From positions 3,873-67,872 of the forward strand of contig JAGLJF010000003.1 of the NCBI GenBank assembly GCA_023142595.1: a stretch of 64,000 bases of DNA, in the 5' to 3' direction. Shown here one piece after another: positions 1 through 59,096 of this stretch (positions within the stretch are counted from its first letter, which is position 1; each line of letters opens with the position of its first letter). The DNA is from Minisyncoccota bacterium. Its GTDB lineage: Bacteria; Patescibacteriota; Minisyncoccia; JAHIHE01; JAGLIN01. The notes beneath the pieces were generated by a model. The model did no database searches. It worked only from the letters and a program-made list of their open reading frames with translations, and was not told where the DNA came from. The position numbers and the translations under genes were made by a program.

Positions 1-142
1 TCAGCCATTGTTTTGTCGTCACCCAATTTCTACCAATTTTCACTCCTTTCAATTTTTCCTGACGACAAAGCAAGCTAATATAATCCTGAGAATAATTTGT
101 CAACTTTGCTGCTTCAGAAAGAGAGATATAATTTTGATCCAT
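1..142 (-). CDS. Partial CDS (N-terminus only, continues beyond window) with HTH_17/excisionase-MerR-like helix-turn-helix
   Basis: Minus-strand ATG at 142. Translation MDQNYISLSEAAKLTNYSQDYISLLCRQEKLKGVKIGRNWVTTKQW is typical of HTH_17 DNA-binding domains. Confidence 0.4.
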   Translation of the reverse strand, partial: MDQNYISLSEAAKLTNYSQDYISLLCRQEKLKGVKIGRNWVTTKQWL

Positions 143-309
143 GATAATATTAATAGTTTATATTTTTGATTTATAATAATATTAAGTTCTACTTTATGCT
201 ATCTTAAAAATTTTAACTTTATAATTTTATTATACAACGAATTTAAATCTTAAACAATCCTGATTAATTTCTTGACTATTGAATTTTAACTTTCAAAATC
301 ATAAAAAAA

Positions 310-780
310 ATGCTACACTATATCTATAACTACTTACAAAACACAACGATGATTTATCCAATAGTACTTATACCAATAATTATTGGTATAACAACTCAAC
401 TCACAAAATTTTTACTTTCTATTATAAAACATAAAAAAATAGAACTCAAATACCTTCTAATTTCAGGACATATGCCTTCTGCGCATACTGCTTTTGTTGT
501 TTCAATTACGACAATCGTCGGCATTAGAGAAACTATATTCTCAACACTTTTTGCTATTACCTTTGTTTTCTCCTATATCGTAGTTTATGATGCTCTGAAA
601 ATAAGAATAAACATTGGCAAAAATGGCAAAATAATAAACAAACTTGTCAGAGAAATTTCTGGAATAAATGAGGATGATTATCCAATTCTCAGAGAAAGAG
701 TCGGGCACAAGCCTCTCGAAGTTTTGGTCGGCGGAATTTTTGGTTTTCTTATGACGATTTTATTAATTCAATTTTTTTAA
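310..780 (+). CDS. Divergent PAP2 family (DUF212, acid phosphatase/vanadium haloperoxidase-related) membrane protein
   Basis: Motif SGHMPSAHTAF resembles the DUF212 signature GGMPSSHSA. Multiple TM helices. Confidence 0.5.
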   Translation: MLHYIYNYLQNTTMIYPIVLIPIIIGITTQLTKFLLSIIKHKKIELKYLLISGHMPSAHTAFVVSITTIVGIRETIFSTLFAITFVFSYIVVYDALKIRINIGKNGKIINKLVREISGINEDDYPILRERVGHKPLEVLVGGIFGFLMTILLIQFF

Positions 781-893
781 TTGATATTTTGATTTTACCA
801 AAATACAATCTTTGGAGTTCAGACTTTAGTCTGTAGGCTGGATTTACAGGTTAAAACCTGGACTCCAGTTATTTTTTTCATAATATTTTTATT

Positions 894-2204
894 TTATCCT
901 CCAAGCCTTCTGACTTTTTTCAAAACCTGATATATATCATAACCAAATTTATCAATTGCCAAATCATAAGCGCCGATATAGCTTTTTTCTTCTCCTCCAA
1001 AACCTTTTTTGAATTTTGTAATTCCACGCCAAGTCTCCTTTTCTCCGTCAATTGTAATTCCCCAAAAATCATATTTTTTATATCTTGCATTTTTCGCATC
1101 TTGAATTTGTTTCCATTGCAAAAGATATGGCGCCATTAGATTTCTATGCTCATTAGACGATGCTCCATGAAGATAGATCGTCAAATCCCCAAAACACAAA
1201 ACGATATTAGCTGCAATAATTTTTTCCTCATATTCAGCAAGATATAATTTGGCAATTAAATTATAATTATTAATATATGCGCTGTCATTCTGAACTTGAT
1301 TCAGAATCTTTTTTGTATCGCCACTATTTCTTTTAATATTCCCCATGCCTTGTTTTGCGAATTGAAAATTAGATAAACCATCATCACGAACAGATTCTGA
1401 AATGAATTCAGAATGACAATTTGAATCTGTTTTACCGCAAAAACTCAAGTTTTTCAACATCTCCTGATAATAATTTTTATTATGAGAAATAATTTTATTC
1501 CGCTCTGAAGTTTCTTTCGTTAATTCCCAAAAAAATTCAAATTTTTTTCGAAACTCTTCCTGATTTATATCTCCTGATTTATATCTCCTGATCTGCACTC
1601 CCCTTTTTTCAGCCAATCGAATATTATAACGAGTTTTCTGTTTCATTTCTTTCAATAAATCTTCTTCTGATTTTTCAAGATTTAATATTAAAGTATCTTT
1701 TGGCTGAATTTCAGACGGTGATTTTTTTAAATTAGTAAAATGTTCATAATTCTTATGCTGGCTCCATAGTCCCTTTAGGGCTGTGAAGCCTGTTTGCAAA
1801 AGTCTTGCATTTGGGTTCCACAGCCCTTCGGGACTATGGAACCAGCGAGAAATCGGCGGATCAATTCTCAAAAATATACTTTTTTCTTTTCTGACAATTT
1901 TTTTAATTTCAACAAACAAGAAATCATAAACGCTTGATATTTGAGAATTAACGATTGTAATATTTATCACAGGACCACGCGGACAATATAAATAACTTTT
2001 TCCAAACGGAAGATTATGCTTTATTAAAAGAGCTACAGCCACCAACTTATCTTCATCTTTAACCCCAATTCTAAATATTTTTCTTCCTATAACTTTTTGA
2101 AATTCTCCCCACTGCCAAGACTGCAAAAAACTTTCTGAACTGTTGAAAACTATAAATTTATTCCAGTCCTCTTTTTGATTTTCTCCTATTTCAATTATTT
2201 TCAT
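894..2204 (-). CDS. FemAB-family peptidoglycan interpeptide bridge peptidyltransferase (MurM/FemX-like)
   Basis: Family-like N-terminus (WQW...YCPRGPV) and C-terminal region (FKKGFGGEE). Carries an in-frame palindromic element (see repeat 1761..1843). Confidence 0.55.
   Translation of the reverse strand: MKIIEIGENQKEDWNKFIVFNSSESFLQSWQWGEFQKVIGRKIFRIGVKDEDKLVAVALLIKHNLPFGKSYLYCPRGPVINITIVNSQISSVYDFLFVEIKKIVRKEKSIFLRIDPPISRWFHSPEGLWNPNARLLQTGFTALKGLWSQHKNYEHFTNLKKSPSEIQPKDTLILNLEKSEEDLLKEMKQKTRYNIRLAEKRGVQIRRYKSGDINQEEFRKKFEFFWELTKETSERNKIISHNKNYYQEMLKNLSFCGKTDSNCHSEFISESVRDDGLSNFQFAKQGMGNIKRNSGDTKKILNQVQNDSAYINNYNLIAKLYLAEYEEKIIAANIVLCFGDLTIYLHGASSNEHRNLMAPYLLQWKQIQDAKNARYKKYDFWGITIDGEKETWRGITKFKKGFGGEEKSYIGAYDLAIDKFGYDIYQVLKKVRRLGG
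1761..1843. repeat. ~83-bp compound palindromic element (CCATAGTCCC..GGGCTGTG / CACAGCCC..GGGACTATGG) inserted in-frame in the FemAB gene
   Basis: Two half-sites are reverse complements of each other. Solo half copies occur at 42444-42478 and 42855-42888. The insertion encodes ~WFHSPEGLWNPNARLLQTGFTALKGLWSQ. Confidence 0.7.
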
Positions 2205-2233
2205 AATAAATTTTATTATTTTTTATCCGGAGT

Positions 2234-2261
2234 GTTAAACGAAGAGATAACGAAGTTTAAC
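2234..2261. repeat. REP hairpin family A (GTTAAACgaagagataacgaagTTTAAC), copy 1, part of a ~95-bp REP-like unit
   Basis: Perfect palindromic arms. Three copies flank the RAYT gene at 2478..3014. Confidence 0.75.
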
Positions 2262-2387
2262 TGAAGTATCACATCTTTCCTGCACTCGGTAGAATTCCAT
2301 TTTATTACATTCTACACTCCCGTTTTTTTCGGAATGTTAAACGCGGAATTTATTGTTTGTTGAAATGTTAAAATTATTTTCTGGAGT

Positions 2388-2415
2388 GTTAAACGAAGAG
2401 ATAACGAAGTTTAAC
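2388..2415. repeat. REP hairpin family A, copy 2
   Basis: Same 28-bp palindrome. The surrounding ~95-bp unit is conserved with copies 1 and 3. Confidence 0.75.
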
Positions 2416-2477
2416 CGCAATATCATTTTATGCCCGTGTTTAGTAAAACTACATTTTATTTCATTATACGATTCCAT

Positions 2478-3014
2478 TTAATCATCTTCTTTAATTGTAA
2501 AATCATAAATCGAATATCTTTCAAAACAATCACTCATCCATTCTTCACCTTTTTCTTTAATTATTCTGCTATAACTACAAAATTTACAATTCAAAACTTC
2601 TTCCTGCTTATTAACATATTTATGTTTTACCAAATTATGATGAATATAATTCAAATGCAATAGAAAATCTTTTTCATCTCGAAGACAATAATCCCAATAT
2701 TGATACCATACTTTTCTGCCTTTTTTGTTTGACATTTTATTCAACTCTTTCGAAGAGAGCGCGTGAAAATCTTTAATGAGATATTTTAAATCATTTCCCT
2801 TGTTCGTTTTAATTATAATATGATAATGATTATCTAAAATCACAAAAGCATAAAGCAAGTATTTATATCTTTCAAGAACATTGTTTAAAGTCTTTATAAT
2901 CACTTTCTTTTTGTCCTCAGTGTTAAAAATTTTTACACTTTTAACAGTTCTTGCTGAAATAAAATAAAATGTATTATCTTGATAAATATGTAAAGGGCTG
3001 TGCTTTTTATACAT
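2478..3014 (-). mobile_element. REP-associated tyrosine transposase (RAYT, IS200/IS605-like HuH Y1 transposase)
   Basis: HuH motif NHYHIII. C-terminal tyrosine region VWYQYWDYCLRDEKDFLLHLNYIHHNLVKH. Flanked by cognate REP hairpins. Confidence 0.7.
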
Positions 3015-3052
3015 TTATTTTATATTAATAATTTTCGCTAAACCGCTGGAGC

Positions 3053-3080
3053 GTTAAACGAAGAGATAACGAAGTTTAAC
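3053..3080. repeat. REP hairpin family A, copy 3
   Basis: Same palindrome downstream of the RAYT gene. Confidence 0.75.
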
Positions 3081-3146
3081 TGCAGTATCACATCTTTTTC
3101 ATATTCGATAGAACTACATTTCATTTCGTTCTATACTCCAAAATTA

Positions 3147-4211
3147 TTATCTCAATTTCAAATTCGCATCTGCCTTTACGCTTTTCCAATTCTTAATCCC
3201 TTTATTTTTCTCAACATATTTATAAGCCGCAATGGCAATCATCAAAGCATTGTCTGATGTTAATTTTGACGTTGGGAAAGAAAAACCGCAAAGAGGTAAA
3301 TCTGATTTTATCGCTTCGGCTAATACTTTTTGCAATTTTTTATTTGCTGAAACCCCTCCTCCTAAAACAATGTTTTTTACTTTATGTTTTTGTGCCGCTT
3401 TGATGGTTTTAGAAACAAGCACATCAAAAGCCGCCTTCTGAAAAGATGCTACAACGTCTTGTTTATATTGGTCATTATAGAGACGCATAGATGCTGCATC
3501 TCTACAGCTTTGAACCTCATATAAAACCGCAGTTTTCAACCCTGAAAAAGAAAAATTATAATCGCCACTATTCATCATCGGTCGCGGAAATTTTATTTTT
3601 TCTTCATCTCCCTGTTTTGCCATTTTTTCAATAATAGGTCCCCCAGGATAACCGAGTTCCAAAAGCTTGGCAACCTTGTCAAAAGCTTCTCCCACCGCAT
3701 CATCCAAAGTTTCTCCAAGAACTTTATAATTCAAATCCTTTTTCATAAGAATGATTTGAGTGTGTCCACCAGAAACTGTCAGACAAAGAATCGGAAATTC
3801 TGCTTCCCATAATTTATTATTTTTTGCATCAGATTTCTTAAGCCAATTTGCATAAATATGTCCTTCAATGTGATGAATTCCAATTAATGGTTTCCCCAAA
3901 CCATAAGCAAGAGCTTTGGCAGCTCCAACACCAACCATCAAAGCAGGAATCAATCCAGGACCATTCGTCACGGCAACATAATCAATTTTTTTCTTGCTTA
4001 TTTTTGCATTACGAAAAGCTCTTTCCAAAATTGAAGTAATGTTTTTTAAATGCATTCTTGAAGCCAAAGACGGAACAACTCCACCAAATTTACTATGCAT
4101 TTTGACTTGAGAAGAAACTATATTTGCCAAAACCTTAGCACCTCCATTTTTAAATTCAACAATAGCAACCGCTGTTTCATCACAAGAAGTTTCAATCGAC
4201 AAAATAATCAT
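3147..4211 (-). CDS. tsaD: tRNA N6-adenosine threonylcarbamoyltransferase TsaD (Kae1/YgjD family)
   Basis: MIILSIETSCDETAVAIV start. HxxH metal site (GIHHIEGHIY). Full-length family similarity. Confidence 0.85.
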   Translation of the reverse strand: MIILSIETSCDETAVAIVEFKNGGAKVLANIVSSQVKMHSKFGGVVPSLASRMHLKNITSILERAFRNAKISKKKIDYVAVTNGPGLIPALMVGVGAAKALAYGLGKPLIGIHHIEGHIYANWLKKSDAKNNKLWEAEFPILCLTVSGGHTQIILMKKDLNYKVLGETLDDAVGEAFDKVAKLLELGYPGGPIIEKMAKQGDEEKIKFPRPMMNSGDYNFSFSGLKTAVLYEVQSCRDAASMRLYNDQYKQDVVASFQKAAFDVLVSKTIKAAQKHKVKNIVLGGGVSANKKLQKVLAEAIKSDLPLCGFSFPTSKLTSDNALMIAIAAYKYVEKNKGIKNWKSVKADANLKLR

Positions 4212-4300
4212 AAAACTGTTTTAAACAATTTAATCTACTAATATTCTAACATATATCGCAATAATCTCATAAAATTATACAAGTCTTATTAATATTTATT

Positions 4301-4329
4301 TTGACTTTTTTGCCCTAAAAAGCTAAACT
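4301..4329 (+). promoter_or_regulatory. Candidate sigma70-type promoter for clpB (TTGACT-17-TAAACT)
   Basis: Hexamers with 17-nt spacing about 40 nt upstream of the clpB start. Divergent from tsaD. Confidence 0.3.
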
Positions 4330-4366
4330 TAAGTAAAGAAATTTTTTATTATATAACAATAAATAT

Positions 4367-7012
4367 ATGATAAATCCAAATAAATTTACCACAAAATCAC
4401 AAGAAGCGATTGCTTCTGCGCATTCAATCGCATCTGAACATAATCAACAACAAGTTGACGCACTTCATCTTCTTCTTGCTCTTTTAACTCAAGAAGGTGG
4501 AGTTGTTCTATCAATTCTCAATAAGCTTGATGTACAGATAAATTTTATACAAGCCGAAATTGAAACTGGAATTGGAAATATTGAAAAAATTCAATCACCA
4601 CCTAAAGCAACAGGACAAGTATATCTCACTCCCTATCTTGGACAAATTCTTGAAAATTCACAAAAAGAAGCAGAGAAGCTTAAGGATGATTTTATCAGTA
4701 CAGAACATATTTTACTTTCCATGACTGAAACTAATGGTAATGTAAAAAATATTCTTGAAAAATTTAGCGTCACTTATGAAAATATTTTGAAAGTTCTTGT
4801 TGATGTCAGGGGCTCTCAAAGAGTGTCGGACAGCGAGCCTGAAAGTAAGTTTCAAGTTCTTGAAAAATATGCTCAAAATCTGACGAAACTCGCTAAAGAG
4901 GAAAAGCTTGATCCTGTTATCGGCAGAGATGAAGAAATCCGAAGGGTAATGCAAGTGATTTCCAGAAGAACAAAGAATAATCCAGTTCTAATTGGTGAAG
5001 CTGGAACTGGAAAAACCGCCATCGTCGAAGGACTAGCTCAAAGAATTGTAGCAGGTGATGTTCCTGAATCGTTAAAAAACAAAGATTTAATTGCTCTTGA
5101 TTTGGGCTCTTTGATTGCAGGCACAAAATTTAGAGGTGAGTTTGAAGAAAGACTAAAAGCAGTTCTCAAAGAAGTTGAACAATCCACGGGAAAAATAATT
5201 CTTTTTATTGATGAGCTTCATACCCTAGTTGGAGCTGGCGCTTCGGAAGGTTCAATGGACGCTTCTAACATGCTCAAACCACTTCTAGCTAGAGGGAAAT
5301 TACACACTATTGGAGCAACAACCCTCAAAGAATACCAAAAATATATTGAAAAAGACGCTGCGCTTGAAAGAAGATTCCAGCCTGTTTATGTAAAAGAACC
5401 AAGTATTGAAGACACCATTTCAATACTCAGAGGAATAAAAGAAAAATACGAAGTCCATCACGGAGTAAGAATTAAAGATTCTGCGCTTGTTAGCGCTGCA
5501 ACTTTATCTTCTCGATATGTTTCTGATAGATTTCTTCCAGACAAAGCCGTTGATTTAATCGACGAAGCGGCATCCTCTCTTCGAATGGAAATTGACAGCA
5601 TGCCAGCAGAACTTGATAAGATGAAAAGAGAAACTCGCAGATTTGAAATTGAAAAGAAAGCGCTCAAAAAAGAAAAGGATAGGGAATCAAAAGAAAGACT
5701 AGAAGAACTCGAAAAAACAATTGCAGATTTGAAAGAACAAAGTAAAGATATTGAAATTCAATGGAAAAATGAAAAAGAGATAATTTCAAAAATTCGAACA
5801 TCAACAAAAGAAATTGAAAAGCTCAGACAAGAAGCTGAGATTGCTGATCGAAACGCGCAACTTCAAAAAGTGGCTGAAATCAGATATGGCAAAATTCCCA
5901 ATCTTGAAAAAAACATCAAAAAAGAAAAGTCAAGACTTCAAAAAATCCAAGGCGAAAGACCAATTTTGAAAGAGGAAGTTGATGACGAAGATATTGCTAA
6001 AGTAGTTTCTCGTTGGACTGGTATTCCAGCGAATAGAATGATGCAAGAAGAATCTCAAAAACTTTCTCATATGGAAGAGGACTTATCTCAAAGAGTTATC
6101 GGACAAAAAAAAGCCATCAAAGTTGTTTCCAATGCAGTAAGAAGAAATCGTGCTGGAATTTCTGAAGAAAACAAACCAATTGGTTCATTTATTTTTATGG
6201 GACCGACTGGAGTTGGTAAAACTGAACTTGCAAAAGCGCTCGCCGAATTTATGTTTGAAAGTGAAGATGCAATTATCAGAATTGACATGAGCGAATATAT
6301 GGAACGCCATGCAGTTGCAAAAATGATTGGCTCCCCTCCTGGATATGTCGGATTTGAAGAAGGAGGACAACTTACTGAGCAAATTCGCAGAAGACCTTAT
6401 AGTGTGATTCTCTTTGATGAAATCGAAAAAGCTCATCCAGATGTTTTTAATATATTCTTGCAAATTTTAGATAATGGAAGGTTAACTGATGCGAAAGGAA
6501 GGGTCGTGAATTTCAAAAACTCAATTATCATTATGACATCGAATATTGGGAATGAAGTCATTGAAGAATATTCATCGCTTGGCTTTGTTAATCGCGATAG
6601 CAAAAAAACTATCGAAGAAAAAGAATTTGAAAATAAAATCAAAGGAGAATTAAAAAATCATTTTAAACCAGAATTTCTGAATCGTATTGACGAAACAGTA
6701 ATTTTCCATTCTCTGTCTAAAAAAGAAATATCTCGAATTGTTGACTTGCAACTTGAAATTGTTTCAAAAAGACTTGCCAAGCAAAATATCAAAATTCAAG
6801 TGACTGACAAAGCAAAAAAATTAATATCAAAAAATGGATATGAACCATCATTCGGCGCAAGACCCCTAAAAAGAGCTATTCAAAATGAAATTCTTGATGA
6901 ATTAGCGCTCCAAATTATTGAAGGAAAAATAAAAGAAGATGACACAATCGTCATTGATGTAAAGAAAGACAAAATTGTTTTCAATAATGAAAAAATTAAT
7001 GAAAAAAAATAA
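4367..7012 (+). CDS. clpB: ATP-dependent chaperone ClpB (two AAA+ modules with middle coiled-coil)
   Basis: Clp N domain. Walker A sites GEAGTGKTA and GPTGVGKTE. Long coiled-coil insertion between NBD1 and NBD2. 881 aa. Confidence 0.9.
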
Positions 7013-7799
7013 TCTTATCATTTTGAAAATCGGTGGATCTGTGATTACTGATAAAAAAAATGATAATAAAAAAATAAACAGAAAAATTCTCAGAAGAATA
7101 TCTCGCGAAATAGCTTGGGCTCAAAAAGAAAAAAACTTTGCGCTCATTATTGTTCATGGCGTTGGACCATTTGGACACAAATTGGCAAAAAAATTTAATC
7201 TCCACAAAGGATATAAAAATAATTTACAGATCAAAGCACTTTCTGAAATCTACGAAAGTCTTCAAAAACTAAACACAGAAATAGGCATCTATCTTAAAAA
7301 AGAAAAGGTAAATACAGTTAGTTTTAAACAATCTTCGGCATGGATGCTCGAAAATAAAAGACTTATCAATGCAGATTTATCAATAATTAAAAAACATTTA
7401 GACTTTGGCATTGTTCCAATTTTACACGGAGATGTTTTAATGGATACAAAACTTGGTTTCAGCGTTCTTTCTGGAGATCAAATCGTTTCCTATTTAGCAA
7501 AAAAATTAACAGCAAAAAAGGTCGTAGTTGGAACAGATGTTGATGGTGTTTTTAACAATGACCCAAAATTAGATAAACACGCCAAGATTATTAAAATGTT
7601 TAATTCTCAGCATAAAGATAAATTATCTCTAGGAGGATCAATTTCTACAGATGTCACTGGTGGAATGAAAGGTAAAATTGATGAGCTAATTGAACTTTCA
7701 AAATTCGGGATTGAATCAGAAATCATAAATATTGCAAAACCAAATATTTTAAAAAAATCCCTCTATGGAAAAAACGGTCTCGGAACAATCATAAAATAA
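6975..7799 (+). CDS. Isopentenyl phosphate kinase (amino-acid kinase fold; archaeal-type mevalonate pathway enzyme)
   Basis: Motifs [37 protein letters not shown] match the IPK family. The annotated start overlaps the clpB end; the true start is probably the M at 6990 or 6999. Confidence 0.65.
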
Positions 7800-7805
7800 A
7801 AATAA

Positions 7806-8669
7806 ATGAAACTACTCAAGCATCTAAAAATTATCATTCCCTCATTCATATTTTTTACAATGATGGAGATTTTTTTTGAAAACTCAGCATCATTTGATTC
7901 ATTAATAGTTCTTTTGCTAATATCAGTTCTCAGCGCTTTTTGGATAACAAAATATAAATTTCTTCCAATTATTTTAACCTCACTATTTTCTTTGGGAAGT
8001 ATTTTATTTTTGTTAATATTAGGAGATATATCCGAACCCTCTTTGTTGGGTTTTGAACGACTATTTCTTCAACAAGAAAATGCATTTCAACATTTTTATA
8101 TAATTTCATCTTCAATTATATTCGCCTTTTCATTAATTGGTCTTGAAAGATTTTTCTTACAGCAAGAAAAATGGATGGAACAAAAAGAAGTCAAACTAAA
8201 TCTCTTGGATTCAGGATATAATTTAAACCAGACAATAATGCTTATTTCGATTTTTCTAATATCATCGGGATCCTATGGTATATATATTATCCTTGACTTT
8301 CCAGCTTGGATTATTATGCTAATTATATTTTTATCCATTTTCTTTTCCACTCTGTATCTCACAAAAATCAATTTTATAAAAAGCAAAGCAAGCGGAATTC
8401 ATCTTAATTCAGCAAAAAACAAAACATTTAATTTATACTCTTTTCTACTCGGATTTATCATGTTAGAATTAGTTTGGGCATTAAGTTTTTGGCCAGCTAG
8501 TCACTTAGTAATCGGCTCTATAATTCTTTCTGCTTATTACTGTTTTTGGAATATACTCAAAATTTATCTCAAAAATGAATTTTCAAGAAAAACTGTTTTT
8601 TTAAATTTATCATTTTTTATTATATTTATCGGACTGATTATTTTAATTCAGGATTGGCAAATAAAATAA
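7806..8669 (+). CDS. Polytopic membrane protein, unknown function, with an internal ERLFLQQE/ERFFLQQE repeat
   Basis: Hydrophobic profile throughout. No recognisable catalytic motifs. Confidence 0.35.
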   Translation: MKLLKHLKIIIPSFIFFTMMEIFFENSASFDSLIVLLLISVLSAFWITKYKFLPIILTSLFSLGSILFLLILGDISEPSLLGFERLFLQQENAFQHFYIISSSIIFAFSLIGLERFFLQQEKWMEQKEVKLNLLDSGYNLNQTIMLISIFLISSGSYGIYIILDFPAWIIMLIIFLSIFFSTLYLTKINFIKSKASGIHLNSAKNKTFNLYSFLLGFIMLELVWALSFWPASHLVIGSIILSAYYCFWNILKIYLKNEFSRKTVFLNLSFFIIFIGLIILIQDWQIK

Positions 8670-8729
8670 ATAAATCCAATAATTAATATATGCAATAACA
8701 AAAATTAAATTATATCTAAGTAAAAATAA

Positions 8730-9665
8730 ATGAAAAATATTACTATAAAATCTCTGAGAGATAAACAGAACGAAAACGACGAAAATTCAGCAGAAACTTT
8801 TTTCAAAAAACCAAAAAATGAAATTAAAGAATTGGAAAAAAAATTGCCCAAGCCAAAAAGAGTTAATGCAATTTCAAAAACAATCCTTTCTGTTCTTTTC
8901 GTTCTAATTGTCGGAGGGATTGGAGGAATAACAATAGACAGATTCGCGCTACCATATTTATTATTTAAATATCCAGACCTAAATCAATACGAATTTCTCA
9001 AGAAAGTAAACGAGGGAACAACCGTCTGGGAAGTAATAAAAGAAATAAAAATTTCCCCAGACGAAGCTGTAACAGAGGCTATTAAAAAAGTTTCTCCTTC
9101 TGTAGTTGAGGTTATGGAATTCTCAAGTGAAGAAAGTTATTCATTCTATAAAGGATCAGGAATAATTCTGACTAACGACGGATATATAATAACTTCCATC
9201 GATAATATAACTCCGAAAGAAATAAATTCCGAAGATGAAAAAAGAAATATCATCAAGATAAAACTGAAAAATGAAAAAGTTTATGAAACAGAGCTAATCA
9301 AGGTTAATCTTCCTACTGGACTGGCAATCATCAAAATTGAGGAAAACAATCTTCCTGTTATTGCTTTAAGTGATTCAGAAAATCTTAAATTAGGAGAAAC
9401 AATCATCGTCATAGACAGCGCAGTTGTGACAGATATTGTTTCAAAATTTATTGATGATTATTCTTTAAAGGCAACGACAGAAGAAAATAAACTAATTTTA
9501 CAGAAAAGAATAAAGACTGTAAATTCTTTGAAAAACACATTTGACGGAGCGCCAGTACTGAATACTAAAGGAGAAATTATCGGTATCAGTCAAAGTGGAG
9601 ATTTATTTATCCCAACAAACGAAGTCAAGGATTTCATAGATAGCGTGATGGATAAGAATAATTAA
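8730..9665 (+). CDS. Membrane-anchored protein with a degenerate trypsin-like (HtrA/S1C-like) domain, probably catalytically inactive
   Basis: N-terminal TM. GSGIILTNDGYIITS and LPTGLAIIKIEENNLPVIALSDSENLKLGETIIVID resemble S1C protease segments, but the catalytic His of TNNHV is replaced. Confidence 0.3.
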   Translation: MKNITIKSLRDKQNENDENSAETFFKKPKNEIKELEKKLPKPKRVNAISKTILSVLFVLIVGGIGGITIDRFALPYLLFKYPDLNQYEFLKKVNEGTTVWEVIKEIKISPDEAVTEAIKKVSPSVVEVMEFSSEESYSFYKGSGIILTNDGYIITSIDNITPKEINSEDEKRNIIKIKLKNEKVYETELIKVNLPTGLAIIKIEENNLPVIALSDSENLKLGETIIVIDSAVVTDIVSKFIDDYSLKATTEENKLILQKRIKTVNSLKNTFDGAPVLNTKGEIIGISQSGDLFIPTNEVKDFIDSVMDKNN

Positions 9666-9800
9666 ACCAAATTTCTTATTTGTAAATGAAGAACCTCGCA
9701 GCAAGCTGCCGAGGTATCAAGAGGAAGAAATCCCTTTTGACAACTCCAACCAATGCAAGCATCGGGGAATTCTATCGATTAAAAAGTCTATATAATTAAT

Positions 9801-9891: not shown

Positions 9892-11163
9892 ATGAATAAT
9901 AACAAAAAAACAACCTTCCTTTCTCTTGGCGCTGAATCTATAGGAAGATTTGCTGTTTATTCTGACGACAGTGTTTTTGTTTCCGAAAATTTTGGCGATT
10001 TACTGAATGAAAATAATTTCAAAAATTATGAGAAAGCCGTTCTAAAACAAATTAAAATAAAGAAGCCTAATGTGATTTTGACAGATTTGCATCCGCTTTA
10101 TGTTTCAACGGTTTTAGGAGAAGAATTATCAAAAAAACTTCAAATTCCACACATCAAAATTCAACATCATCTTGCCCATGTTTTCTCTGCAGTTGGGGAT
10201 AAATTTTGCCATTCTAACCCTAACAATTGTAATTCTGAGATTAATATTTGTCATCCTGAGCTTGTCGAAGGATTTCAGTCCGTTGAGACTACAAGAGATT
10301 CTTCGACTCCGCTCCGCTCCGCTCAGAATGACAGTAATAATTTTAGACTTGATATAAAATACTCTTTACCAAATACTTTCTACGGCATTGCTTCTGATGG
10401 CACGGGTTTAGGTTTTGATGGGAACATCTGTGGTGGAGAGGTTTTTGAATTTAAAAATACAAAATCTATAAAACAGCCTCTGCACCAAGTTCAAAATAGC
10501 AGTATAAAAAGAATTGGCTCGCTTGAAGAACAAACTATGCTTGGCGGAGATTTAGCAGTCAAAGAACCGGCTCGTATGCTCATTAGCATTCTTTCAAAAT
10601 TTCTGCCGAAAGAAAAAACATATGAAAATGTGGAAAAACATTATTCTAAAAACGAATTTGAACTTCTTTATAATCAACTTCAACAAGATTTCAATTGCCA
10701 AACAACAACAAGCACGGGAAGAATTTTAGATGCTGTTTCAGTTTTGCTTGACTTTGCAAAAAACGAACGAAAATCAAAACATGAAGCGACAAAACTTCTT
10801 GAAGAAAAATCTGCTATTCCGTATAAACTTAATCCAAAAATTACATTCGATAAAGATTATAACAGATATATTTTACAAACAACACCTCTTTTTGAATATT
10901 TATTAAAAAACATCAATAAAGATAAAAAAAGGCTTGCCACAACTGCACAATTATATCTTGCTCAAGGGTTTTTGGAAATTATCAATAAAAATTCAAATAA
11001 TCAAAACAGTAAAATCTTTTTCGCTGGCGGAATAGCGAATAATCAAATTATGTCCTCATATCTGGAAAATAATAATGTTTATACATCAAAAAAAATCCCT
11101 CGTGGAGACGAAGGACTTGCATTCGGTCAAATTATATATTATTTGTCTAACTATATAAATTAA
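9892..11163 (+). CDS. HypF C-terminal (Kae1/YgjD-like carbamoyltransferase) domain protein; lacks the acylphosphatase, Zn-finger and YrdC domains of full HypF
   Basis: LGAE..., DLHPLY and QHHLAHVFSA align with the HypF Kae1-like domain. Convergent with hypE, 7 nt apart. Contains an in-frame MITE (10250..10333). Confidence 0.55.
   Translation: MNNNKKTTFLSLGAESIGRFAVYSDDSVFVSENFGDLLNENNFKNYEKAVLKQIKIKKPNVILTDLHPLYVSTVLGEELSKKLQIPHIKIQHHLAHVFSAVGDKFCHSNPNNCNSEINICHPELVEGFQSVETTRDSSTPLRSAQNDSNNFRLDIKYSLPNTFYGIASDGTGLGFDGNICGGEVFEFKNTKSIKQPLHQVQNSSIKRIGSLEEQTMLGGDLAVKEPARMLISILSKFLPKEKTYENVEKHYSKNEFELLYNQLQQDFNCQTTTSTGRILDAVSVLLDFAKNERKSKHEATKLLEEKSAIPYKLNPKITFDKDYNRYILQTTPLFEYLLKNINKDKKRLATTAQLYLAQGFLEIINKNSNNQNSKIFFAGGIANNQIMSSYLENNNVYTSKKIPRGDEGLAFGQIIYYLSNYIN
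10250..10333. repeat. Family-3 MITE (gtcatcctgagcttgtcgaaggat...ctcagaatgaca) inserted in-frame within the hypF-Cterm CDS
   Basis: Same termini as the tandem copies at 58877-59096. Translated as ...ICHPELVEGFQSVETTRDSSTPLRSAQND... Confidence 0.7.
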
Positions 11164-27699: not shown

Positions 27700-28536
27700 A
27701 TGCTTTCAAAAGAAGAAATTCAAAAAATATTCAAAACTCCAAACATGGCAATTCTCAAAAGCTTGGGACAGAATTTTTTGATTGACGAAACTGTTTTGAA
27801 AAATATAATTACTTGTTCAGATTTAAATAAAGATGGCGTTGTAATTGAGATTGGTCCAGGACTTGGAACTTTGACTGAAGAGCTTTCAAAAAAATGTAAA
27901 AAAGTTATTGCCATCGAAAAGGACAATGAGTTTGCGCAAATGCTTGAAGGAAAATTTGAAAATGTGGAAGTGATTAATGGTGATATTCTGCAAATGAATA
28001 TTAATGAGCTGGTTCATAAATATTCTCAAAACGGAAAATTCAAACTTGTTTCCAACATCCCCTATTATATTACCTCTCCAATTATAAAATTATTTCTAGA
28101 AAATGCCATCCAACCAGAAGTCATTGTTTTGTTGATGCAAAAAGAAGTGGCTCAAAGAATTTGTGAAAAACCAGGAAAACTGAGTATGATTGCGCTAGGC
28201 GTTCAAGTTTATGGAGAACCTGAAATTGTCGGTTTCGTTAAAAATACTTCTTTCTATCCAGCGCCAAAAGTTGATTCGGCAATTTTGAAAATAAAAAATA
28301 TAAAACGAGAATTTTCTGACGAATATTATCAAAAGTTATTTCGAATTATGAAAATTGGTTTTTCATCCAAAAGAAAAAAATTATTGAACAATCTTTCAGC
28401 AGGTTTGCAAATCGAAAAAAAGGAAGCAGAAAAATTTCTTAATCAGACAGAGATCGATTTGAAAGTCCGCGCGCAAGAATTGAGCATTGAACAATGGGAA
28501 AAATTAATGGAAGTTTACACGACCGTAGAGACGTAG
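27700..28536 (+). CDS. rsmA: 16S rRNA (adenine1518/1519-N6)-dimethyltransferase RsmA/KsgA
   Basis: LGQNFLID motif, SAM-binding VIEIGPGLGTLT, NIPYYI motif. The stop codon lies inside a REP-B hairpin. Confidence 0.85.
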   Translation: MLSKEEIQKIFKTPNMAILKSLGQNFLIDETVLKNIITCSDLNKDGVVIEIGPGLGTLTEELSKKCKKVIAIEKDNEFAQMLEGKFENVEVINGDILQMNINELVHKYSQNGKFKLVSNIPYYITSPIIKLFLENAIQPEVIVLLMQKEVAQRICEKPGKLSMIALGVQVYGEPEIVGFVKNTSFYPAPKVDSAILKIKNIKREFSDEYYQKLFRIMKIGFSSKRKKLLNNLSAGLQIEKKEAEKFLNQTEIDLKVRAQELSIEQWEKLMEVYTTVET

Positions 28537-28553
28537 CAATGCTGCGTCTCTAC
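28525..28553. repeat. REP hairpin family B (GTAGAGACGyAGCAATGCTGCGTCTCTAC), copy 1
   Basis: Near-perfect 29-bp palindrome. Three copies around/in the second RAYT. Confidence 0.75.
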
Positions 28554-28585: not shown

Positions 28586-29203
28586 ATGTCTCGGCTATAT
28601 AAGAATAAATTCAAAACTGAATCAACGAGATTGAAAAAATGGGACTATTCACAGAATGGTTTTTATTTTGTGACGATTTGCACGAATAATCATCAGTTGT
28701 TTTTTGGTGATGTAAAAAAATCAGAATCAGAACATTGTCCAATTTTTGAAATGAAAAAATCGCCCATTGGCAAAATCGCCGAAAAATATTGGTTAGAAAT
28801 TCCAAAACATTTTTCAAATGTAAAATTAGATGTATTTGTAATTATGCCAAACCATTTACACGGGGTAATTGAAATTTGTGATGATATTGTGATTGATAAA
28901 AATAAACCGTGCAAACATGTAGAGACGCAGCAATGCTGCGTCTCTACAACAACAAATAATGAATCAAAAACATTTTATAGATTAATTCCAAAATCACTGC
29001 CTGTTATTATTCGCTCATTTAAATCAATTTGTACAAAAACAATAAATCAGAAATTTGATGATAGAAATTTTTCCTGGCAATCGAAATACTATGATCATAT
29101 TATTAGAGATGAAAAATCATTAGACGAAATCAGAAAATATATTATTGATAATCCCGCAAAATGGGATTTGGATAAGAATGTTGTTGAGAATTTTTATAAA
29201 TAG
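28586..29203 (+). mobile_element. Second REP-associated tyrosine transposase (RAYT, IS200-like) carrying its own REP hairpin in-frame
   Basis: HuH motif MPNHLHGVIEI. Catalytic tyrosine region WQSKYYDHIIRDEKSLDEIRKYIIDNP. REP-B copies at 28525, 28919 (inside ORF) and 29241. Confidence 0.65.
28919..28947. repeat. REP hairpin family B, copy 2, located in-frame inside the RAYT ORF (encodes HVETQQCCVSTT)
   Basis: Same palindrome. The ORF remains open through it. Confidence 0.7.
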
Positions 29204-29240: not shown

Positions 29241-29269
29241 GTAGAGACGTAGCAATGCTGCGCCTCTAC
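29241..29269. repeat. REP hairpin family B, copy 3
   Basis: GTAGAGACGTAGCAATGCTGCGCCTCTAC. Confidence 0.7.
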
Positions 29270-42243: not shown

Positions 42244-42691
42244 TCCTTAAAAATATTTTTTGTTTATCATCGTTTCTTGATTCACCTCCATCTGTTTGGG
42301 TGAACTTTTTTAACTATCTTTTTTTCATTGTTAGTCTCGAAATAACAAATATATTATATTGCGATTCAACACAAAATTAATCTGCTTACGGGATTCTTCA
42401 TTTCTCTCAAAATGACGCATAAGTATATTGCTAAAATTTTGCAATCTGGGATCCACAGCCCTACGGGACTATGGAACCCTCGAAATAATATTATAAAAGA
42501 TAATTACAAAAATTCACCCAAAAGAATAATCAAATTGCTGGAAAACAAAAGATAAACTTATGGCTATTTTGTTTTTTTAAAAGAACATTTTCAAAATCAA
42601 CATAAGTTGACCCTCTCTCCTTCTCTACTCCAAAACTAGCACAAATATTTGTTTTTGTCAAGGTGGCTGGATGTGGACAGATTTTAGAGAT

Positions 42692-42803: not shown

Positions 42804-42970
42804 TATTTGTCATACTAAGAAGGAACGACAAAGTATACTGATAAAGTTTTGCAATCCGGGCTCCACAGCCCTACAGGACTATGGAGCCCTCAAACTAAAT
42901 TCAGAATAACAAAAATAAGACAACAAAAAACTGCCTCGCTTTTGCAAGACAGTTTTTCAAAAATTAATTT

Positions 42971-44038
42971 CTATTGAATCCCTTTGAACATCGGCATTCC
43001 ATTGTCAGGACTAGTCGGTACATAAATTGTTCCTTCTCTGTCTTTGAGTTCTCTGATATATAAGTAGTTCAAATATTCAGCAGTCAAACTTTCATTAATT
43101 GTCTTTTGAGCATCTCTTTGTCCTTCTGCCTCAATTCTTTTTCGATCTGCTTCTTTCTTTTCTTTTTCTAAAACAAAATCATACCTTTGACTTTCTTGCT
43201 GTGCTTGAAGTTTTTCTTGAATGCTGGCATCAAGCTTTTCTGGAAGAATTACATTTCGAAGAAGAACTTGCTCAATGGCAATTCCTCTTGGCTCAATGTT
43301 GTCTGCCATTTTTTGCCTAATGGTATTGATTATTTCATCTCTTTTGTCTGAGTAGATTGATTTTGAATCATATCCTGCTACAACTTCTCGAATTGCGCTT
43401 CTGATTTCAGGTCTAATGATTTTTTCCTGATAATTTATTCCCAATTCTTTATATACATCAGAAGCACTGTCTTCTACAAGATGATAAAAAACAGTAATAT
43501 CAAGTTTGACGGTTAGCCCTTCGCTTGTCAGAGCATCAATGGAATCGTCTCCAATTTTTTCGCCCTCTCCTTGTACAACACTCATAGTGTATTGTTCGGT
43601 TCTAATGCTTAGTTTTGTTATCTGAGCGAGAGGATTGATTATATGAAGTCCAGATTTTACTTCAGCATCTTTTACTTTCCCAAACAAATGATAAACCCCT
43701 GTTTCTCCTGCAGGAATAATGACAATGGAATTTGCAAGAACGATTAGAGATAAGATAATCACTATAACTGTACTTGTTGTTTTTTTATCCATAAATTTTG
43801 AATTTAGTTTATTAAAAAATTGATTTGAATTATTTGAAGAAAAAAATTGTTTGCCATCTTTCATTCCAGAAAAATTGAGATCAATCCCCTTTTTTCTCGA
43901 TTCTTCTTTAATGGCAAGAAATACAGGAAGAAGAAAAACTGCTCCAAAAATTAACCAGAAGATTAGTGATGGTTTGAATATTAATAAAAATATAAATATC
44001 CAAATTATTGTTTTTGTTAATTGTTCTTTGTTTTGCAT
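42971..44038 (-). CDS. SPFH/band-7 family protein (prohibitin/HflC-like), N-terminal TM
   Basis: Full-length SPFH similarity: IPAGETGVYHLFGKV..., EQVLLRNVILPEKLDASIQEKLQAQQESQR, coiled-coil tail. Confidence 0.8.
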   Translation of the reverse strand: MQNKEQLTKTIIWIFIFLLIFKPSLIFWLIFGAVFLLPVFLAIKEESRKKGIDLNFSGMKDGKQFFSSNNSNQFFNKLNSKFMDKKTTSTVIVIILSLIVLANSIVIIPAGETGVYHLFGKVKDAEVKSGLHIINPLAQITKLSIRTEQYTMSVVQGEGEKIGDDSIDALTSEGLTVKLDITVFYHLVEDSASDVYKELGINYQEKIIRPEIRSAIREVVAGYDSKSIYSDKRDEIINTIRQKMADNIEPRGIAIEQVLLRNVILPEKLDASIQEKLQAQQESQRYDFVLEKEKKEADRKRIEAEGQRDAQKTINESLTAEYLNYLYIRELKDREGTIYVPTSPDNGMPMFKGIQ

Positions 44039-44335: not shown

Positions 44336-44526
44336 AAAATATTGGTTTCATTTTCGAAAAGATTATTTGTCATTCTTGTAGATATTACCTAATTCGTTGA
44401 TAGAATATGTTCAAGCTCTGTCATCCTGAACTTGTTTCAAGATCTATCGTACTTTGCAATAAATGCTTCTATAAATCGTAAAATATTTTAGTCGGATTAT
44501 TTATTTCATCTAATATTTTTCAAGAA

Positions 44527-44811
44527 TTAATCTATATTCAAGTCAGCAAATCCAGGATTTTTACTTTTTATTAAGTTTATTTTCCACGCTCTGTGCCAAT
44601 TTTTAAGTTGTTTTTCTCTTTTAATTGCAGAAACAACATCACTTGTCTGTTCAAAATAAACTAATTTTTTTAAATTATATTTTTCAGAAAAACCTTTTAC
44701 TAGTTTATTTTTATGTTCATAAACTCTTCTTTTTAAATCATTTGTCACACCAATATACAGGGCTGTATCAGTAAAATTCATCATAATATACACATAATAC
44801 GATTTTGACAT
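44527..44811 (-). CDS. GIY-YIG nuclease-domain small protein
   Basis: YYVYIMMNFTDTALYIGVTNDLKRRVYEHK is a GIY-YIG motif. 94 aa. Sits in a nest of MITE copies. Confidence 0.7.
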   Translation of the reverse strand: MSKSYYVYIMMNFTDTALYIGVTNDLKRRVYEHKNKLVKGFSEKYNLKKLVYFEQTSDVVSAIKREKQLKNWHRAWKINLIKSKNPGFADLNID

Positions 44812-44983
44812 TTATTTGTTTTAAAAACATTAAAATCATAACCAACGACAGATTCTGAACTAAATTCAGAATGACAAAAAGTTTGTTTCATTTTCGAAAA
44901 GATTATTTGTCATTCTTAGGTTCTAAACTCAACCACACCTGTCATCCTGAACTAACCCAATGTCATCCTGAGCCAAACCCCTG

Positions 44984-58876: not shown

Positions 58877-59096
58877 TGTCATCCTGAGTGAAACGAAGGA
58901 TCCCGTTATTAGTTTCATGAGGTGTTTTATAACGACTTGATGTACATAATCTCGGGATTCTTTACTACTATTCAGAATAACTGGATACACTATCATTCTG
59001 GGCTTGTCGAAGGATTCCACTGTTAGTTTTGTATAATATTTTATGACGATTTGATGTGCATAGTCGCGAGATTCTTCACTACCGTTCAGAATGACA
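58877..59096. mobile_element. Two tandem family-3 MITEs (~105 bp each; GTCATyCTGAGyG...GAAGGATyCC ... GGGATTCTT...TTCAGAATGACA) between hypD and hypC
   Basis: Copy 1 58877-58982, copy 2 58992-59096. Same family as the in-frame copy in hypF-Cterm and the partial copies at ~40370-40430. Confidence 0.7.

Follow-up and report, generated by a model that had tools for sequence, protein, structure and literature searches.

The DNA analysed here, henceforth the window, is a stretch of 64,000 nucleotides from contig JAGLJF010000003.1 of a Minisyncoccota bacterium, a member of the Patescibacteriota. Close to its start the minus strand carries a gene for a transferase of the FemAB family, and within the coding sequence of that gene lies a long palindrome that leaves the reading frame open. 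A sequence-only reading of the window had placed this palindrome at 1761-1843, with a length of ~83 bp and a contribution of roughly 28 residues, and had likened it to the Rickettsia palindromic elements (RPEs). Its position was right; the element is in fact somewhat larger, with 90 nt (1757-1846) and 30 codons. As set out below, sequence comparison identifies it as a REPIN, i.e. a hairpin-forming doublet of inverted repetitive extragenic palindromic (REP) units, of a REP family, here termed family A, whose units flank genes for REP-associated tyrosine transposases (RAYTs) in other genomes. A RAYT gene next to FemAB, a second palindromic insert in the gene and the hotspot character of the insertion site had escaped the earlier reading. 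Throughout, labels of the type P0001 denote FemAB homolog proteins, of which 120 were surveyed, and those of the type L001 denote retrieved DNA loci.

The FemAB gene and its palindromic insert

The host gene, the element with its parts, and the two further family-A units of the window are the following:

894..2204, minus strand: gene for a FemAB-family peptidyl/aminoacyl transferase, 436 aa (list of open reading frames, Pfam, structure matches)
1757..1846, no strand: family-A REPIN, an inverted REP doublet (GCTGG...CCAGC) of 90 nt, 30 codons in-frame (inverted-repeat arms, fold, absence from L001)
1757..1790, minus strand: left REP unit, in plus-strand reading GCTGGCTCCATAGTCCCTTTAGGGCTGTGAAGCC (nhmmer 1807-1752, E 6.6e-15)
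1791..1813, no strand: spacer with the 'heads' of both units (TTTGCAA / TTGCA), a small inner palindrome (sequence, fold, unit alignment)
1814..1846, plus strand: right REP unit GGTTCCACAGCCCTTCGGGACTATGGAACCAGC (exact pattern 1818-1839; nhmmer E 5.1e-17)
1755..1850, minus strand: element-encoded loop, codons S119-H150 (SRWFHSPEGLWNPNARLLQTGFTALKGLWSQH), at the hypervariable site 1 (alignment, AlphaFold2, homolog survey)
42432..42487, plus strand: solo family-A REP unit with its core at 42453-42474, intergenic, within a 727-bp spacer between two minus-strand genes
42842..42896, plus strand: solo family-A REP unit with its core at 42863-42884 and one mismatch, intergenic, ~90 nt downstream of the stop of the open reading frame (ORF) 42971..44038

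The product of ORF 894..2204 is a full-length match to PF02388 of Pfam (200.7 bits, profile positions 3-406 of 406) and matches the solved Staphylococcus aureus structures of FmhB (6snr, E 1.9e-22) and FemA (1lrz, E 3.6e-20). Its reading frame is unbroken and keeps those core residues that the family conserves, with two inserts in place: the family-A element and a second palindrome, of a family C, which is described further below. Comparison of the window gene with its element-free ortholog (P0002 at locus L001) gives a dN/dS of 0.34, by which measure FemAB is under purifying selection. The claim that the element sits inside the FemAB ORF without breaking the frame is borne out, and the peptide encoded by it is the one that had been reported. 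On the sense strand of the 90-nt element the frame in use is the sole frame free of stops, and the predicted tryptic peptide of a full-length FemAB bearing the insert is WFHSPEGLWNPNAR.

The element consists of two mutually complementary halves, as first described. Its outer arms, GCTGGCTCCATAGTCCC (1757-1773) and GGGACTATGGAACCAGC (1830-1846), measure 17 nt each, with 94% complementarity; a further pair of arms, nearer the centre, occupies 1777-1799 and 1805-1827, and the whole of 1757-1846 folds as a single long hairpin on both strands, with energies of -63.2 and -62.8 kcal/mol (z of -10.4 and -9.5, 0/200 shuffles being equally stable). The core motif CCACAGCCCNNNGGGACTATGG is found at 1818, 42453 and 42863, against 0.00 matches expected from shuffles. 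Searched with the nhmmer profile of the unit, the window yields exactly four family-A units (E 1e-15 to 1e-18), two of them opposed in FemAB and two intergenic solos; the latter are the solo halves previously noticed at 42.4 and 42.9 kb.

The closest homolog of the FemAB protein, P0002, has 357 aa and shows 88% amino acid and 91% nucleotide identity over aligned positions, and the order of its neighbourhood, DUF212-FemAB-TsaD-ClpB, is identical. At the position of the element (site 1) it has an ordinary loop of 25 residues, PIEKNNESGTVNQKYIKKFQKSFSE, a type of loop that recurs in distant branches of the family, and at the DNA level the window exceeds L001 there by a net 72 nt. Relative to its nearest syntenic ortholog, the family-A segment is, by this alignment, an insertion, in keeping with the sequence-only reading. 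L121, assembled independently from the metagenome of a different sample, agrees with the window at 100% identity over 3,427 nt that include the element, which excludes an assembly artefact. The notion that the segment is either such an artefact or native FemAB sequence, its likeness to a repeat being coincidental, can appeal to the natural variability in length of site 1; it is refuted by the expectation of zero chance matches, by the presence of the same units in intergenic DNA, at over 100 further loci and next to RAYT genes, by the nearest ortholog, which lacks the segment, and by the identity of the independent assembly, and we accord it practically no weight. Homologs that share residues of the element (P0005, P0006, P0013, P0014 and others) also show the repeat signature in their DNA, rather than holding those residues as plain native sequence.

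Both inserts are present in 5/5 full-length members of a cluster of proteins at 98-100% identity, which derive from several contigs. A sixth member of this cluster, P0128 (301 aa), is a fragment that starts inside the REPIN (MQTGSTAL...): its contig ends within the element, and only the downstream part is represented. The left unit of the window copy departs from the family consensus by one C>T change, which turns GSTAL into GFTAL; since residue 140 is the consensus S in 4/5 of the sister-strain variants, the window copy has acquired this one stem mutation after the insertion. Compared with L001 over 892-9674, at an overall identity of 91-95%, the window shows three large differences: the family-C insert (+165 nt), the family-A REPIN (+72 nt net) and a cassette with a RAYT gene (+928 nt). 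All three lie within ~2 kb around FemAB, and the following 6.5 kb (TsaD, ClpB and an amino-acid kinase; 95% identity) have 0 such indels.

Family A and its RAYT genes

The family was surveyed by an exact-pattern scan over one genome per species, followed by a search of the retrieved DNA with the nhmmer profile. Exact family-A matches were obtained in at least 116 stretches, nearly all of them from Patescibacteria among the matches listed; the taxa represented among these are Parcubacteria, Paceibacterota, Magasanikbacteria, Moraniibacteriota and Falkowbacteria, and Rickettsia loci are absent from them. The profile search recovered 215 units in 158 clusters over 118 sources (the retrieved loci and the window); of the clusters, 114 are solos and 34 simple doublets, with a small number of larger arrays besides. 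At least 53 units come from the 12 loci retrieved for one metagenome-assembled genome, JAYEKL01. The sequence-only reading had envisaged a census of the palindrome, and the outcome agrees with its view of a colonising repeat: family A is dispersed across many Patescibacteria genomes and occurs in-frame in unrelated, Pfam-verified genes, to which we return below. At the level of the peptide, a query of 41 aa yielded no candidate from a word index, and an exhaustive HMMER scan of 1.84 billion representatives with the 32 residues of the element gave 5 matches at E<=0.001, a number that is small because a query of 32 residues is short of power.

Family-A units were further seen on several contigs of JAJDAS01 (L008, L011, L030, L045 and L055; labelled 'Nitrospinia bacterium OFTM173') and on a single contig from Bryobacterales (L082). 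These could be mis-binned Patescibacteria contigs, or else the result of horizontal spread.

The family-A unit is a hairpin of about 31-33 nt, with a lower stem of 9 bp, a bulged A, an upper stem of 3 bp and a loop of 3-5 nt. The lower stem (GG[C/T]TCCACAG / CTATGGA[G/A]CC) contains a single C.A mismatch that never varies and that appears as a T.G wobble on the opposite strand, and the bulged A is likewise invariant. The upper stem covaries (CCC/GGG, CTC/GAG, GGC/GCC, CCT/AGG, TCC/GGA), and so do the outer pairs (GGCTCC/GGAGCC, GGTTCC/GGAACC, GGTGCC/GGCACC). Across 78 distinct sequences pairing holds in 96% of cells and 7/12 pairs are altered on both sides; 0/500 shuffles reach the observed values, and partners slid out of register pair at 16-51%.

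The arrangement of units in doublets is fixed: 41/41 adjacent inverted pairs are in the '-+' orientation, with the hairpins outward and the heads (TTTGCA...) facing each other, and a pure '+-' doublet was found in none of the 158 clusters. The ends of the doublets conform to Y-G[T/C]TGG[C/T]TCCATAG...CTATGGA[G/A]CCA[A/G]C-R, with a spacer of ~10-70 nt, and the 90-nt form seen in the window is also found in L004, L043 and L081. Immediately after the stem come tails of a few types (AACA 57, AACG 46, AGCG 19 and AGCA 12, of 189), which read inward as YGYT (CGTT, TGTT, CGCT, TGCT) and are neither GTAG nor CGTC. No target-site duplication accompanies 29/31 doublets, the same as in shuffled controls, and past the ends of the element no conserved insertion target was found, the Y at -1 and the R at +1 merely extending the inverted repeat.

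These structural features invite the explanation that the hairpin in FemAB is retained for a role at the RNA or DNA level, such as stabilisation or processing of the mRNA, a pause in translation between the two GNAT-like domains, or excision of the element from the transcript. Consistent with it, the fold of the mRNA strand is extremely stable (-63 kcal/mol), one strand of each unit has G.U/T.G wobbles opposite the C.A mismatches of the other in a structure that covaries, and a role as mRNA elements is known for classical REPs (Di Nocera et al., 2013, PMC3733652). The covariation, however, belongs to the dispersed family as a whole, and recognition by the transposase accounts for it; copies at the same site of other FemAB genes have decayed, the second half in L003 and the first half in L068 pairing poorly; and a stem mutation sets the window copy apart from its sister strains. 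Moreover, the genes that harbour the units are functionally unrelated, and no known RNA family was matched when window positions 1-5000 were searched against Rfam at a permissive E-value, the only hits being sub-threshold chance matches (e.g. MIR3932, 24 bits against a gathering score of 150). A retained role of this kind is thus highly improbable.

A link of family A to a transposase comes from other genomes. In L040 and L081 inverted family-A units bracket an intact gene of 181 aa, the products of which score 102.6 and 99.9 bits against the NCBIfam REP-associated tyrosine transposase (NF047646, cut-off 80) and possess the HUH motif. In L022 (2214-2760) a RAYT pseudogene with 6 stops in the expected frame is still bracketed by such units. 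Around the RAYT genes of these three loci the units face outward just as they do in doublets, which look like a version of this arrangement with the gene left out. Since its units both flank RAYTs and form inverted doublets, family A fits the published REP/RAYT definition, under which the doublet is a REPIN (Bertels and Rainey, 2011, PMC3116915).

The window has a RAYT gene of its own next to FemAB, with repeats of another family, here family B:

2478..3014, minus strand: RAYT, 178 aa, HUH motif NHYHIII (NCBIfam NF047646, 95.7 bits with a cut-off of 80; Pfam Y1_Tnp, 31.8 bits)
2220-2325 and 2374-2479, plus strand: family-B repeat of ~106 nt, two direct copies, flanking the RAYT and distinct from family A
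3039..3144, plus strand: third family-B copy, likewise direct, at the opposite side of the RAYT

This gene is situated 632 bp from the REPIN, in a cassette of 928 nt (2218-3145) that has no counterpart in L001, where the gap between TsaD and FemAB is 3 bp. With three direct family-B copies, the arrangement resembles IS200/IS605 ends more closely than a classical REPtron. Each family-B copy contains two small hairpins, GTTAAAC..GTTTAAC and GTAGAAT..ATTCTAC. Family B was considered as a structured REP family or a relative of family A, and support was obtained for neither: its copies fold no better than shuffles (z -0.3 to -0.8), and elsewhere it has only weak B-like matches.

The window RAYT belongs to a different subgroup from the family-A-flanked RAYTs, with which it is only 25% identical. 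Being flanked by family B and so divergent, it is not assignable as the enzyme that mobilises family A here. One could nonetheless hold this neighbour responsible and suppose that the REPIN and the family-C element came in jointly with the RAYT cassette or hopped locally from it. Such an account would make sense of the confinement of the three large indels to ~2 kb of FemAB, with none in the next 6.5 kb, and of a RAYT that scores above the curated cut-off at such a short distance from the REPIN. It has to contend with the three direct family-B repeats around this RAYT and its distance from the subgroup flanked by family A, and with the occupation of the same FemAB site in L003, L004 and L068, where there is no adjacent RAYT. 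Moreover, at ~3 family-A clusters per 64 kb the chance of a copy within 1 kb of a given point is ~10%, so that the proximity is not compelling. We consider responsibility of the neighbouring gene unlikely.

In-frame copies and the insertion sites of FemAB

The copy in FemAB is not an isolated case, as 35/158 family-A clusters (22%, a figure biased by the ascertainment discussed below) fall within frames that are free of stops over 150 aa or more and extend for 50 codons or more to either side. The hosts of in-frame copies include BacA/UppP, MurB, Mur ligases, ValRS, PheT, KsgA (RrnaAD), a GT1 glycosyltransferase and an MFS transporter besides FemAB; Pfam domains were detected in 9/10 of the scanned hosts, often spanning the insert, the exception being L103. 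Several frames and both orientations are used, with peptides such as WFHSPEGLW..., ...GSTALxGLWSQH, ...HSPxGTMEPT and ...GSIVPLGLW..., and the insertion site is often common to orthologous pairs. The FemAB copy departs in this respect from the extragenic location by which REPs are defined.

In the 120 FemAB homologs the baseline loop at site 1 has 18-25 residues. About 10/120 have a family-A doublet at this site and one has a solo unit; the doublets are of two variants, A1-A1, as in the window, and A2-A1, which has the GGC/GCC upper stem. In a neighbour-joining tree of the core columns the carriers of family A fall in at least 6 places, each next to empty relatives, with weak deep nodes. A single ancient gain at the FemAB site is disfavoured by these scattered positions and the two variants; with the deep nodes weak, gains and losses are not separated. 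By gain or by loss, the scatter of carriers fits a mobile element at a permissive site.

Other repeat-like peptides occupy site 1 in P0015, P0019, P0023, P0038, P0050, P0052, P0064, P0065, P0072, P0077, P0082, P0097 and P0106, including ...TPALSRGEREHASPFKKGAGGIFKKS..., ...LSRGERE...PPFKKGAGGIF... and GIMNQE/RIKNQE heptads. By the look of the protein sequences these are also repeat-derived, and the site-1 loop looks like a general insertion hotspot.

In the AlphaFold2 model of the window protein the core has a pLDDT (per-residue confidence) of ~90. Residues 123-157, between the confident strands E111-114 and E159-161, have a pLDDT <50 and no secondary structure, values that are to be read with the alignment depth considered below. 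The sequence-only reading had raised the possibility of a surface loop; the modelled residues do form an unstructured, low-confidence excursion from a confident core, and the family-A insert is accordingly modelled as a disordered loop off a confidently folded enzyme.

The second insert in FemAB belongs to family C:

1283..1418, no strand: second in-frame palindromic insert in FemAB, a family-C doublet (hairpins TGTCATTCTGAAC..TTCAGAAT, 1283-1307 on the plus and 1394-1418 on the minus strand)

It encodes ...CHSEFISES...ILNQVQNDS..., is common to P0003, P0008, P0009 and P0010, and is absent in P0002 and P0004. The corresponding residues (about 256-311) again have a pLDDT <50 in the AlphaFold2 model, and the site (site 2) aligns with the coiled-coil arm region of the staphylococcal FemA/FmhB. 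Going by the models, both insert sites are plausibly permissive.

With two palindromic inserts that add ~80 residues modelled as disordered, it is conceivable that FemAB has been inactivated, and that it is a decaying or dispensable pseudogene that merely happens to be still open; an in-frame element of 90 nt leaves no frameshift trace, and an open ORF is weak evidence of function. The intact ORF, the retained core residues and the dN/dS speak against this, as do the five full-length strain variants, in which the ORF is open and substitutions are few. Diverged lineages point the same way, in that at least 10 FemAB homologs still have an in-frame doublet of family A at this position. Units are carried by essential single-copy genes (ValRS, PheT) too, and site 2 is where the staphylococcal Fem proteins naturally have a large coiled-coil insertion. 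On balance inactivation seems very unlikely.

As regards the window at large, it is unusually rich in REP-like repeats. Family C has ~19 strict copies in it, mostly as '+ ... -' pairs of hairpins 85-155 nt apart, an arrangement like that of MITEs (miniature transposable elements with inverted repeats). One pair with a wider distance of ~430 nt (44419-44876) brackets a gene for a GIY-YIG nuclease of 94 aa (ORF 44527..44811, minus strand; PF01541, 58.6 bits). A C-like hairpin lies 16 nt from 1/4 further GIY-YIG homologs (L007, 5251-5526), against a background of 0.044 per kb. On these sequence associations the GIY-YIG gene may, weakly, be proposed as the autonomous partner of family C. Further repeats are a small palindrome, GTAGAGACGTAGCAATGCTGCGTCTCTAC, with 3 copies in 800 nt (28525-28553, 28919-28947 and 29241-29269), and hairpins of the TCATCCTGAGCTTGTCGAAGGAT type at 10251-10277 and 58993-59019.

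Origin, relatives and significance of the element

The explanation that we favour, with a probability of roughly 0.78, is that the FemAB element is a REPIN, most likely mobilised by a RAYT and inserted in-frame at a hypervariable site, where the protein accommodates it as a disordered loop. By analogy with IS200/IS605 and the TnpA-REP of E. coli, a RAYT, i.e. an HUH/Y1 transposase of the IS200/IS605 type, would recognise the bulged and mismatched hairpin as single-stranded DNA, and would then cut and rejoin it, with the doublet being moved or copied in the process. In this lineage a 90-nt copy has entered FemAB at the start of the naturally variable loop, directly after the strand FLRIDPP. As the copy has the length of 30 codons and a stop-free frame in use, the reading frame survives, and the insert is probably translated into a disordered surface loop that is tolerated by the enzyme. 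The insert would in that case be a neutral or slightly deleterious passenger, which survived through its permissive landing site and not as an adaptation.

Several points weigh against this explanation. Among close strains (6 strain-level variants, one of them a truncated fragment) no filled/empty polymorphism was found that would speak for recent mobility. The 64-kb window contains the four family-A units only and no family-A-flanked RAYT, its sole RAYT being flanked by family B, and the genome of the window is not among the retrieved loci. The tail of family-A units is not the GTAG that typifies RAYT-associated REPs. The loci were picked by exact identity to the most frequent variant, which inflates the apparent conservation and biases the intragenic share of 22%, and their sequences are related to one another. 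Finally, the low pLDDT of the insert may partly reflect a thin alignment over it.

Among the known systems, the closest include the REPINs, for instance GI-GIII of Pseudomonas fluorescens SBW25 (Bertels and Rainey, 2011, PMC3116915). Like these, and like the E. coli REPs and bacterial interspersed mosaic elements with their TnpA-REP (PMC3116915; Nunvar, 2010, PMC2817692), family A consists of short imperfect palindromes. It further shares with classical REPINs the doublets of fixed inverted arrangement with a less conserved spacer, the single long hairpin, the coexistence of singlets, the flanking of RAYTs and the absence of target-site duplications. Classical REPINs are essentially extragenic, whereas family A is in-frame within genes at FemAB and in roughly one fifth of the clusters sampled. 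It also stands apart in having no GTAG tail and in its Patescibacteria hosts, and the RAYT by the FemAB copy has another, direct repeat.

The palindromic elements of Rickettsia, RPE-1 to RPE-8, were reportedly described by Ogata and colleagues in 2000 and 2002. RPE-1 is longer than the element seen here, at about 100-150 nt. In both cases palindromes have entered, without loss of frame, a wide range of unrelated genes that seem functional, in a bacterium with a small genome. Both persist across species at orthologous sites, and permissive surface regions are the presumed location of RPEs, as they may be for family A. The likeness to RPEs drawn by the sequence-only reading consequently stands as regards behaviour, while the identity of the element is refined to a REPIN, probably outside the Rickettsia RPE families. 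RPE-4 and RPE-6 have been equated with CGTC REPs, for which there is no dedicated transposase (Di Nocera et al., 2013, PMC3733652). Unlike these two, which have the CGTC tag, family A has YGYT tails, flanks RAYTs and occurs in another lineage. From the RPEs as a whole, family A is set apart by its lineage and, as far as tested, by its sequence.

Intragenic REPs of the GTAG and CGTC types are known from Opitutus terrae, Thauera, Thioalkalivibrio and others; they occur as singletons and mostly head-to-head dimers, contribute 20-30 residues, are sometimes found twice per gene, have tRNA synthetases among their hosts, and were read as tolerated (Di Nocera et al., 2013, PMC3733652). Family A differs from them in its tail, which is of neither type, in its hosts, which are mainly cell-envelope and translation genes and not those of DNA repair, and in its lineage, the Candidate Phyla Radiation (CPR). 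In contrast to the CGTC REPs in particular, it flanks RAYTs, and its intragenic share is high. In-frame REP dimers are already known, therefore; the phenomenon and the mechanism have been described elsewhere, and current understanding is not overturned by our findings. Within the literature searched, nothing relevant was found on REPs, REPINs or RAYTs in CPR, Patescibacteria or Parcubacteria.

Two other types of element offer partial parallels. The IS200/IS605 elements (IS608, ISDra2) have, like family A, subterminal imperfect hairpins with an extrahelical base and no target duplication, and in them these hairpins are recognised as single-stranded DNA; the family-A element differs in being non-coding and in its inverted ends, those of IS200/IS605 not being inverted. 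MITEs (Correia, BOX/RUP, Nezha) are small, non-autonomous and possessed of terminal inverted repeats, as is family A. DDE-type MITEs make target-site duplications. Membership of family A among them was considered for its terminal inverted repeats and rejected, since 29/31 doublets have no such duplication.

These results extend the world of REPs, REPINs and RAYTs to the CPR, which is useful for the genomics and annotation of this group and will be unsurprising to specialists of REPs and RPEs. Repeat-derived segments of this kind disrupt alignments, HMM coverage and structure predictions of CPR proteins, and need to be masked or recognised; contigs break at such repeats, fragmenting metagenome assemblies, as in the case of P0128. 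Filled and empty sites are usable as markers of strain and lineage history, and the copies together constitute a natural experiment on which protein sites accept insertions of 30 residues. A broader and rather unlikely proposition is that REPIN/RAYT systems, possibly along with family C, are a systematic source of loop insertions in the essential envelope and translation proteins of CPR, with repeated use of the same permissive sites. If true, a sizeable share of the unusual length variation of CPR proteins would be transposon-derived, and some of it possibly co-opted. A weaker corollary would be that RAYTs act locally, which would explain the three element indels within 2 kb of the window RAYT. 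As for the biology of the host, here, as in Rickettsia, a lineage with small genomes appears to tolerate such elements inside essential genes.

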